59,543 nucleotides of DNA, from the NCBI GenBank assembly GCA_012838755.1, contig DUOQ01000286.1, positions 1 to 59,543 of the forward strand, written 5' to 3'. Below the pieces are notes generated by a model. That model was not told the origin of the DNA. It was given only the letters and a program-made list of their open reading frames with translations, and made no database searches. Shown one piece after another: positions 1 through 694 of this stretch. A program made the position numbers and the translations under genes. This DNA comes from Propionibacterium sp. Its GTDB lineage: Bacteria > Actinomycetota > Actinomycetes > Propionibacteriales > Propionibacteriaceae. How positions within the stretch are numbered: the stretch's first letter is position 1; each line of letters begins with the position of its first letter.

Positions 1-132
1 GGCTCCCAACGGCCGATTCTCGGGGTCGGGCTCGTCAGCTATTCATGCCGCAGAGGTGCCGTGGTGCTTACGCAGCCAACGCATACGCAGTAGACTGAAG
101 GTACGAGAATCGGGTACCTCCCATTTGATTGT
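1..132 (-). mobile_element. Non-coding end of an inserted element, probably the left end of an IS110-family IS with a bridge-RNA-like region; continues beyond the window edge
   Basis: The ABC ATPase sequence stops abruptly after GACGAGCCGA (D-E-P). The 132 bp are ~58% GC (77/132), well below the flanks. The minus strand starts ACAATCAAATGGGAGG, forms hairpins and contains target-matching segments at 29-36 and 6-14. No transposase is visible in the window. Confidence 0.7.
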
Positions 133-694
133 TCGGCTCGTCGAGGACGAGCACCTCGGGGTCGGCCATCAGGGCCAGCGCCACGTCGAGGCGGCGGCGC
201 TCGCCGCCGGACAGCTTGCTGGTCTCGACGTCGGCGCGGCGGGCCAGGTCGACGGCCTCGAGCACGTCGGCGACCGCGATCGGGCGGGAGAGGGTGCCGT
301 GCCACATCCGGGCCATCTCGGCCACGGTGAGGGAGGACGGGAATCCGGAGGCCTGCAGCACCACGCCGGTGCGGTGCCGGACGAGGTGGCGCTCGGCGAC
401 CGGGTCGTGGCCCAGCACGCGGATCTCACCGGCGGCCGGACGAGCCAGCCCCTCGATGAGTTCGACCGTCGAGGTCTTGCCGGCACCGTTGGTGCCCAGC
501 AGGGCGAACAGCTCGCCGCGGCGGACGGTCAGGTCGATCCCGCGGACGGCCTCGAAGGACGCGGTCGGGGTGCGGCCTCCGGTCAGGGGGTTGCGCCGGG
601 TCGCCGTGGTGTAGGTGCGGCGCACGCCGGACAGGGTGATGGCCGCGTCGGCGGCGACCGCCGGGGTGCTGGGCTGGAGCGCTGTCGTCGTCAT
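68..694 (-). pseudogene. ABC transporter ATP-binding protein interrupted at Walker B (native part 133-694), read through into a foreign tail ending YALAA*
   Basis: Walker A GTNGAGKT, signature LSGGE and Walker B VLVLDEP are present. Unrelated NNQMGGTRFSYLQSTAYALAA follows; D-loop and H-loop are missing. Confidence 0.9.

Follow-up and report, generated by a model that had tools for sequence, protein, structure and literature searches.

Serine integrases such as Bxb1, phiC31, SPbeta SprA and Listeria LI (A118) combine Resolvase and Recombinase domains with a zinc ribbon and a helical C-terminus, recombine attP arms that are symmetric about a central dinucleotide, and are described with one main attB. 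In the parts covered of the study of large serine recombinase (LSR) classes by Durrant et al. (2023; PMC10083194), gene-disrupting integration is reported, and “multi-targeting” denotes close LSRs found in several target gene clusters (<50% identity). The main multi-targeting clade mostly carries DUF4368 (63%), an AT-rich TT site serves as the worked example, and ABC_tran makes up 31 of 1069 target clusters in the supplement, without enrichment, while “ABC” occurs 0 times in the main text. Serine-recombinase ICEs and IMEs (Tn4451/TndX and the rumA-targeting IMEs; PMC5704250, in the sections covered) have a 2-bp crossover, disrupt dispensable genes and carry a relaxase and a coupling protein; they enter one gene or AT-rich DNA. 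Elements of the IS110/IS1111 group (IS621; PMC11208160, in the sections covered) have a short core and a circle-junction promoter, with subterminal repeats in IS1111.

The locus described here is like the serine integrases in both domain order and attP symmetry, and, unlike them, its clade enters many paralogous genes at one and the same codon. Gene disruption is common to it and the classes of Durrant et al., whose site database may already contain the clade, and with serine-recombinase ICEs and IMEs it has the 2-bp crossover and the gene disruption in common, a relaxase and a coupling protein being encoded in relatives; the target is the catalytic motif of a gene superfamily, and the hosts are Actinomycetota according to record titles. 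The likeness to IS110/IS1111 extends to a short core, subterminal repeats as in IS1111 and a predicted circle-junction promoter, whereas no DEDD/Transposase_20 gene is seen at the ends, the cargo is large, no RNA is conserved and the supposed guide mismatches the true target. A search of titles and abstract openings, covering few subscription papers, returned no paper on an integrase aimed at Walker B codons (further literature, covered in part: PMC12884075, PMC12286644). We consider it highly probable that positions 1–139 of the window (the whole stretch of 59,543 nucleotides analyzed) form the attL side of an integrative element, at least 16 kb in size, whose opposite end is occupied by an LSR gene and whose insertion divides an ABC ATPase gene within the Walker B Glu codon, at GA; the LSR itself likely reads this site without RNA.

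Contig C212 of a 332-contig assembly with 71% GC (G000) begins with the window. A minus-strand ABC ATPase open reading frame in it departs from ABC sequence after Walker B D-E-P, and the 132 foreign bases beyond have 58% GC vs 75% for the ABC ATPase gene. The C-terminal half of orthologues, used as a query, located the missing part on contig C205, where 122 foreign bases are followed by GAGCCGA and the T-T-G-L-D codons. Intact orthologues in four genomes of the same genus (L009 to L012) read D-E-P-T-T-G-L-D; because two of them (L009 and L010) span the flank in the window and the flank on C205 contiguously, the two pieces represent one ABC gene split between these contigs. A first-pass annotation, made from the letters of the window, had proposed that an ABC gene was broken at its Walker B D-E-P codons by a mobile element, and the second half on C205 bears this out. 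The break after D-E-P also stood, but not the point 132/133, as the crossover is the GA at 138–139, and positions 133–137 are element arm identical to the target. The distal flank, which had been expected to read T-N-G-L, is CC ACC GGG CTC GAC (T-T-G-L-D), as in the four orthologues.

A junction at the end of a contig in an assembly of 332 pieces could be a chimera. Against this, sequencing run X1, which may be the source of the assembly, carries window positions 1–400 on one contig with 0 differences, positions 1–154 are also present in run X9, the counterpart of this end is present on C205, and the same arrangement is seen within single contigs of relatives; an assembly chimera was thus ruled out as having next to no probability. 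The stretch is present in 12 studies, with 0 RNA runs among them. Contigs of run X12 diverge at C205:123, as a mix of filled and empty alleles would, and in run X9 the flank at the element end departs after base 154, which is a hint only. G000 holds no second copy of either element end, and exact end patterns had no match in metagenome, genome or viral contigs or in plasmids.

At the C205 end of the element, a ribosome-binding site and the start of an open reading frame are directed into the element. Among 201 family genomes, this end matches G454 (85%) and G020 (84%), and in both the reading frame in the corresponding place encodes a 517- to 518-aa protein with Resolvase and Recombinase domains. 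The G000 protein has 518 aa, with its N-terminus on C205 and the PF07508 remainder on C225, and a database protein (P0004) joins both in one sequence. PF00239 and PF07508, the resolvase and Recombinase domains of LSRs, scored above cut-off in P0004 and in the homologue P0001, which has the catalytic Ser motif YGRAS at residues 41–45 and a CHYC...CMFRGC pattern. The four Cys of this zinc ribbon are invariant in 72 aligned homologues, although PF13408 fell below cut-off in P0004. The AlphaFold model of P0001 (72 sequences; pLDDT 81.5, pTM 0.44) has long helices at 398–452, and its top Foldseek matches are serine integrase complexes including Bxb1 and phiC31 (16–18% identity over the full length; 16–23% across solved integrases), so that the zinc ribbon and helical C-terminal region expected of LSRs are both in place. 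DUF4368 had no Pfam match in P0001 or P0004, which sets the clade apart by its Pfam domains from the DUF4368/TndX-like multi-targeting clade. The recombinase at the far end is an LSR, where the first-pass annotation had anticipated an IS110-family transposase with DEDD. Its relatives comprised 332 proteins with E < 1e-20 among 7,997 candidates, and targets were examined for the closer ones. The 33-aa N-terminal piece gave no match as a query, and no relatives were found in viral contigs. Since the LSR matched G000 alone among 401 genomes of the phylum, and the junction pattern G000 alone among 401 genomes of the order, the clade is sparse.

Both ends could be paired for nine elements (G000, G454, G020, G496, G499, G897, G899, G901 and G902); leaving out the unpublished G899 turns counts of 9/9 into 8/8. 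In four of the nine (G496, G897, G899 and G902), as in G000, the ends lie on different contigs, and the link between the window end and the LSR end rests on the split gene, attP symmetry and the relatives. Far ends were located with patterns demanding D-E-P codons, so target conservation there is partly by construction, whereas the LSR-side junctions of a 13-locus set were selected without that demand; no far ends were found for G495, G497, G498, G898, G903 and G904. When the ends were rejoined, the inverted arms were best centered on a GA dinucleotide in 9/9 elements and the ABC gene was restored in frame, in keeping with the attP of LSRs, in which, over about 50 bp, inverted arms flank a 2-bp crossover shared with attB. 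The crossover is fixed at GA because the target and the element of G496 have GA alone in common. In G000 the seven-base repeat GAGCCGA is this GA plus five bases in which the attP arm copies the target, and in Solirubrobacterales elements the attP arm itself reads R-I-L-D-E-P. A tyrosine recombinase acting on the GAGCCGA repeat was also considered and was ruled out once an LSR had been identified and G496 showed an overlap of GA alone. The Walker B Glu, in whose codon the crossover falls, has a catalytic role in ABC ATPases. On either side of GA in G000, a gap of 12 nt precedes the 11-nt repeat, which occupies positions 14–24, compared with positions 16–24 for the ZD motif in the attP of LI integrase (PMC3783163, in the part covered). 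In the P' arm, these positions would agree with those at which the recombinase and zinc-ribbon domains of LSRs bind. Coordinates of the features are given in Table 1.

Table 1. Features of the split ABC ATPase locus and its integrative element (window coordinates unless a contig or locus is named)
Feature	Position	Strand	Basis or remark
Element interior	1..65		Unique to the G000 lineage among ends seen; continues at least 7,107 nt in run X1
Guide-like segment (8-mer, hairpin, 9-mer)	6..36	-	Unconserved, likely chance
Promoter-like block, -10-like TAGACT at 91–96	66..98	+	Conserved in G496, L058, G454, G020, G499
P' arm of attL: 12 nt + 11-nt repeat (115–125)	115..137	-	Inverted partner C205:100–110
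Crossover dinucleotide GA (bases 1 and 2 of the Walker B Glu codon)	138..139	-	attP symmetry center in 9/9; G496
5' half of ABC ATPase gene, to Walker B D-E	138..694	-	PF00005, E 1e-27; contiguous mapping of L009/L010
3' half of ABC ATPase gene (E-P-T-T-G-L-D onward)	G000:C205 from base 123		Orthologue mapping
Small convergent ORF	G000:C225 (L049:1217–1387); G454 L026:16231–16416	+	11/11 elements

To establish where related elements insert, LSR-side junctions were collected at 16 loci (the 13-locus set plus G000, G454 and G020), after dropping loci that were due to chance or unparsed (L045, L048, L051, L060, L005 to L007 and L025) and leaving three repeats of L050 (L057, L059 and L061) out of the counts. 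At 14 of the 16, the junction falls between D and E of the Walker B D-E-P of an ABC ATPase; of the other two, one matches up to the point where its contig stops, and one is an exception (L038). The LSRs at these loci are 68–100% identical, and nine rebuilt ABC targets are 35–69% identical, which places the clade in part within the “multi-targeting” definition. The LSRs of G497 and G498 are 99% identical and sit in different paralogues (E-P-V-N-G-L-D vs E-P-T-T-G-L-D). In G900, a metagenome-assembled genome that may mix strains, identical 70-nt ends occur on two ABC genes that agree at 18 of 40 residues (L053 and L056). Record titles for the clade name Brevibacterium linens, Cumulibacter and Solirubrobacterales. 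G000 itself has 65 ABC ATPase matches, with 14 intact sites fitting the family consensus. Of the earlier proposal that a guide is programmed to a motif present in many paralogues, the use of the motif in many paralogues therefore stands, and the RNA guide does not. A tree of the targets had 0/5 starred branches and no claim on coevolution is made because it is unresolved.

At the exceptional locus (L038:2880–2960, in G898), the end is joined at GAC/GT (slash at the junction) to a degenerate sequence that looks purU-like by reading; this may be a secondary site or a later rearrangement. It is also worth noting that the native D-E-P-T-T-G-L-D codons (window 134–142 and C205 130–144) form a pseudo-palindrome, with two 9-nt arms that are 7/9 complementary around 6 nt, centered away from the crossover.

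The first-pass annotation had read positions 1–132 as the left end of an IS110-type element with a bridge RNA programmed to D-E-P-T-N-G-L, and parts of that description are accurate: GACGAGCC is present at both 29–36 and 135–142, GGCCGTTGG is present at 6–14, and a short hairpin lies between the two segments. The 8-mer, hairpin and 9-mer are arranged and oriented as has been described for target-binding loops, only one of the 480 GACGAGCC sites in G000 has the exact pair (its second half was chosen without the flank in view), and G000 holds two IS110-family genes, both 5' truncated. However, GGCCGTTGG is not the complement of the right flank: against the true target the left segment matches 8/8 and the right segment 7/9, which is short of the two matching guides of IS110, and the two segments do not spell the sequence at the junction, as the assembly has 0 D-E-P-T-N-G sites. 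An LSR gene begins at the other end, window positions 66–139 are homologous to LSR element ends, the two ends rebuild an LSR attP, the element has at least 16 kb, and the guide-like segment is unconserved. Neither element end as seen has a gene with DEDD (PF01548) and Transposase_20 (PF02371), and the truncated IS110 genes, on C192 and C99, have no sequence in common with either end. An IS110 element as the cause of the junction is refuted by the LSR gene, the LSR-type end, the flank mismatch and the size, and we assign it a negligible probability. As labeled by reading, the C192 copy of the truncated genes (L001 to L003 for both) is followed by the start of an IS3-like element.

The statistics of the guide-like segment were mixed. 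An exact 8-mer with a 9-mer of ≤2 mismatches arose in 48 of 5000 dinucleotide shuffles, a mild point in favor of the proposed guides; a pair of the same grade was present in 382 of 5000 random 107-nt windows of G000, which offers no such support. The whole 135 nt folded no better than shuffles (z 0.07), and an Rfam search of the 135 nt gave one match, below its cut-off. Alignment of the four closest ends (G000, G496, L058 and G454) showed conservation from about 66 to 139 and none in 1–65, and a guide-like pair was absent from the same place in 8/8 other paired elements, including that of G496, whose LSR is 90% identical to that of G000. An obligatory guide would be expected to persist. An RNA of conserved structure whose guides covary with the target, as in IS110, was found neither among the three closest ends nor in the 8/8 others. 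Window positions 6–36 had no homologue in 400 family genomes.

Two further origins of this segment deserve weighing. In one, the G000-lineage LSR element would have gained an RNA at positions 6–36, or a nested IS110 with an RNA would begin there, and bias or aid Walker B targeting. The shuffle result favors this, the 9-mer would match 8/9 in an E-P-V-N-G-L target like that of L034, the stretch is kept in 12 studies and is thus stable, and the DNA past window base 1 lies outside the recovered sequence. On the other hand, the pair is missing at this place from G496, with its nearly identical promoter block, as from all other paired elements; same-grade pairs occur in the first 300 nt of two of the eight other far ends, at other distances and once inside a relaxase gene, and 72 times in the 43.5-kb G454 element; the random windows pass as often as stated above; and a nested IS110 would be expected to match its own flanks, with no such match seen. 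We therefore think a gained RNA or nested IS110 very unlikely, and the same low standing applies to an RNA-assisted serine integrase, in which a short two-armed RNA from the attL end would pair with Walker B codons and steer the LSR among ABC paralogues. Alternatively, positions 6–36 might be the degenerate remnant of an ABC gene, or a former att site acquired through imprecise excision. The minus strand reads I-A-D-E-P-D-P-E-N-R, the target motif minus T-T-G-L, homologues read D-E-P-T-A-G-L-D-P-E-N-R (L014), and such an origin would account for the better-than-shuffle match while being compatible with the attL reading. It requires a clean 12-nt loss within only about 30 nt, though, and has to contend with the lack of a homologue in the family genomes; overall it seems improbable to us, if a fair alternative to pure chance for this stretch. 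The match behind the supposed guide RNA probably arose by chance, and the sequences point to an LSR protein that likely reads the site itself.

The size of the element also differs from that of an insertion sequence. Contigs of run X1 reach 9,443 nt past C205 base 1 and 7,107 nt past window base 1, so that the element has at least about 16.5 kb if these contigs do not overlap, far more than the IS-type element that had been suggested. Relatives span about 35 to 47 kb. The G454 element is complete on a closed chromosome, with 43.6 kb between its ends and genes inside for the relaxase TrwC and for a type IV coupling protein; 34.6 kb, including TrwC, separate the ends in G020, and the elements of G499, G901 and G900 have ∼47, 41 and 36 kb (contig coordinates). 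In G000, contig C225 encodes a coupling-protein homologue (66% identical), and two TrwC relaxase genes lie on the short contigs C267 and C97 (L064 and L065), unlinked to the element; either may belong to it. Elements of this group are likely ICEs or IMEs, and that of G000 may be one. Labeled by reading open reading frames, the G454 cargo (L027 to L028) includes further ABC transporter and TetR-like genes, with intact Walker B sites inside the element, and that of G020 looks like a small biosynthetic cluster with several insertion sequences.

A -10 box had been proposed in ACAAT at the element end. ACAAT lies inside the attP arm, and the conserved -10-like hexamer is TAGACT on the plus strand, in place of which G902 has TATAAT; a sigma-70 scan scored 0 sites, TAGACT included. 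After excision, the TAGACT block would point across attP into the LSR gene. Behind the LSR gene, a conserved stretch was considered as an RNA and proved to be a small open reading frame (45–66 aa, helix-FPPM-helix), which is convergent to the LSR gene in 11/11 elements checked. It matched no Pfam family above cut-off, and the ESM Atlas gave no usable name; it may encode a recombination directionality factor (excision factor).

Starting from what is directly observed, namely the two gene halves, the LSR gene, a symmetric attP and the same codon in many paralogues, a tentative sequence of events can be drawn. The LSR would recombine attP, whose arms appear to copy target codons, with any ABC gene in which the codons for hydrophobic-D-E-P-T/S-x-x-L-D (cut between D and E) resemble those arms. 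From LSR biology, a tetramer would be expected to synapse attP with the Walker B site and to exchange strands at GA, with specificity probably residing in protein contacts to bases held nearly fixed by the motif codons in GC-rich genomes. The element would spread by conjugation or mobilization, and excision would restore the gene exactly and place the LSR gene behind the TAGACT promoter, with the small convergent gene as a possible excision factor. As far as sequence comparison goes, this is a motif-targeting LSR clade that is likely guided by protein.

The address of such an element is a protein motif rather than any one gene. Since few bacterial paralogues are as numerous as the ABC ATPases, a dispensable landing site is likely in most GC-rich hosts, from the G000 family to Brevibacterium and Solirubrobacterales. 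The clade thereby falls between LSRs with a single site and relaxed ones. Its natural targets form a series from which the tolerance of an LSR for codon variation could be learned, and its integrase is a candidate for use at native sites of Actinomycetota that have not been engineered. If excision is exact, the transporter would be restored and the element could act as a switch. For sequence scans the locus carries a warning, as GC-rich Walker B codons easily mimic bridge-RNA guides. Elsewhere in the window, a short inverted repeat (GTGACA...TGTCAC, positions 716–760) lies where the ABC ATPase gene and an aldehyde dehydrogenase-like gene diverge and is a possible operator or promoter element.
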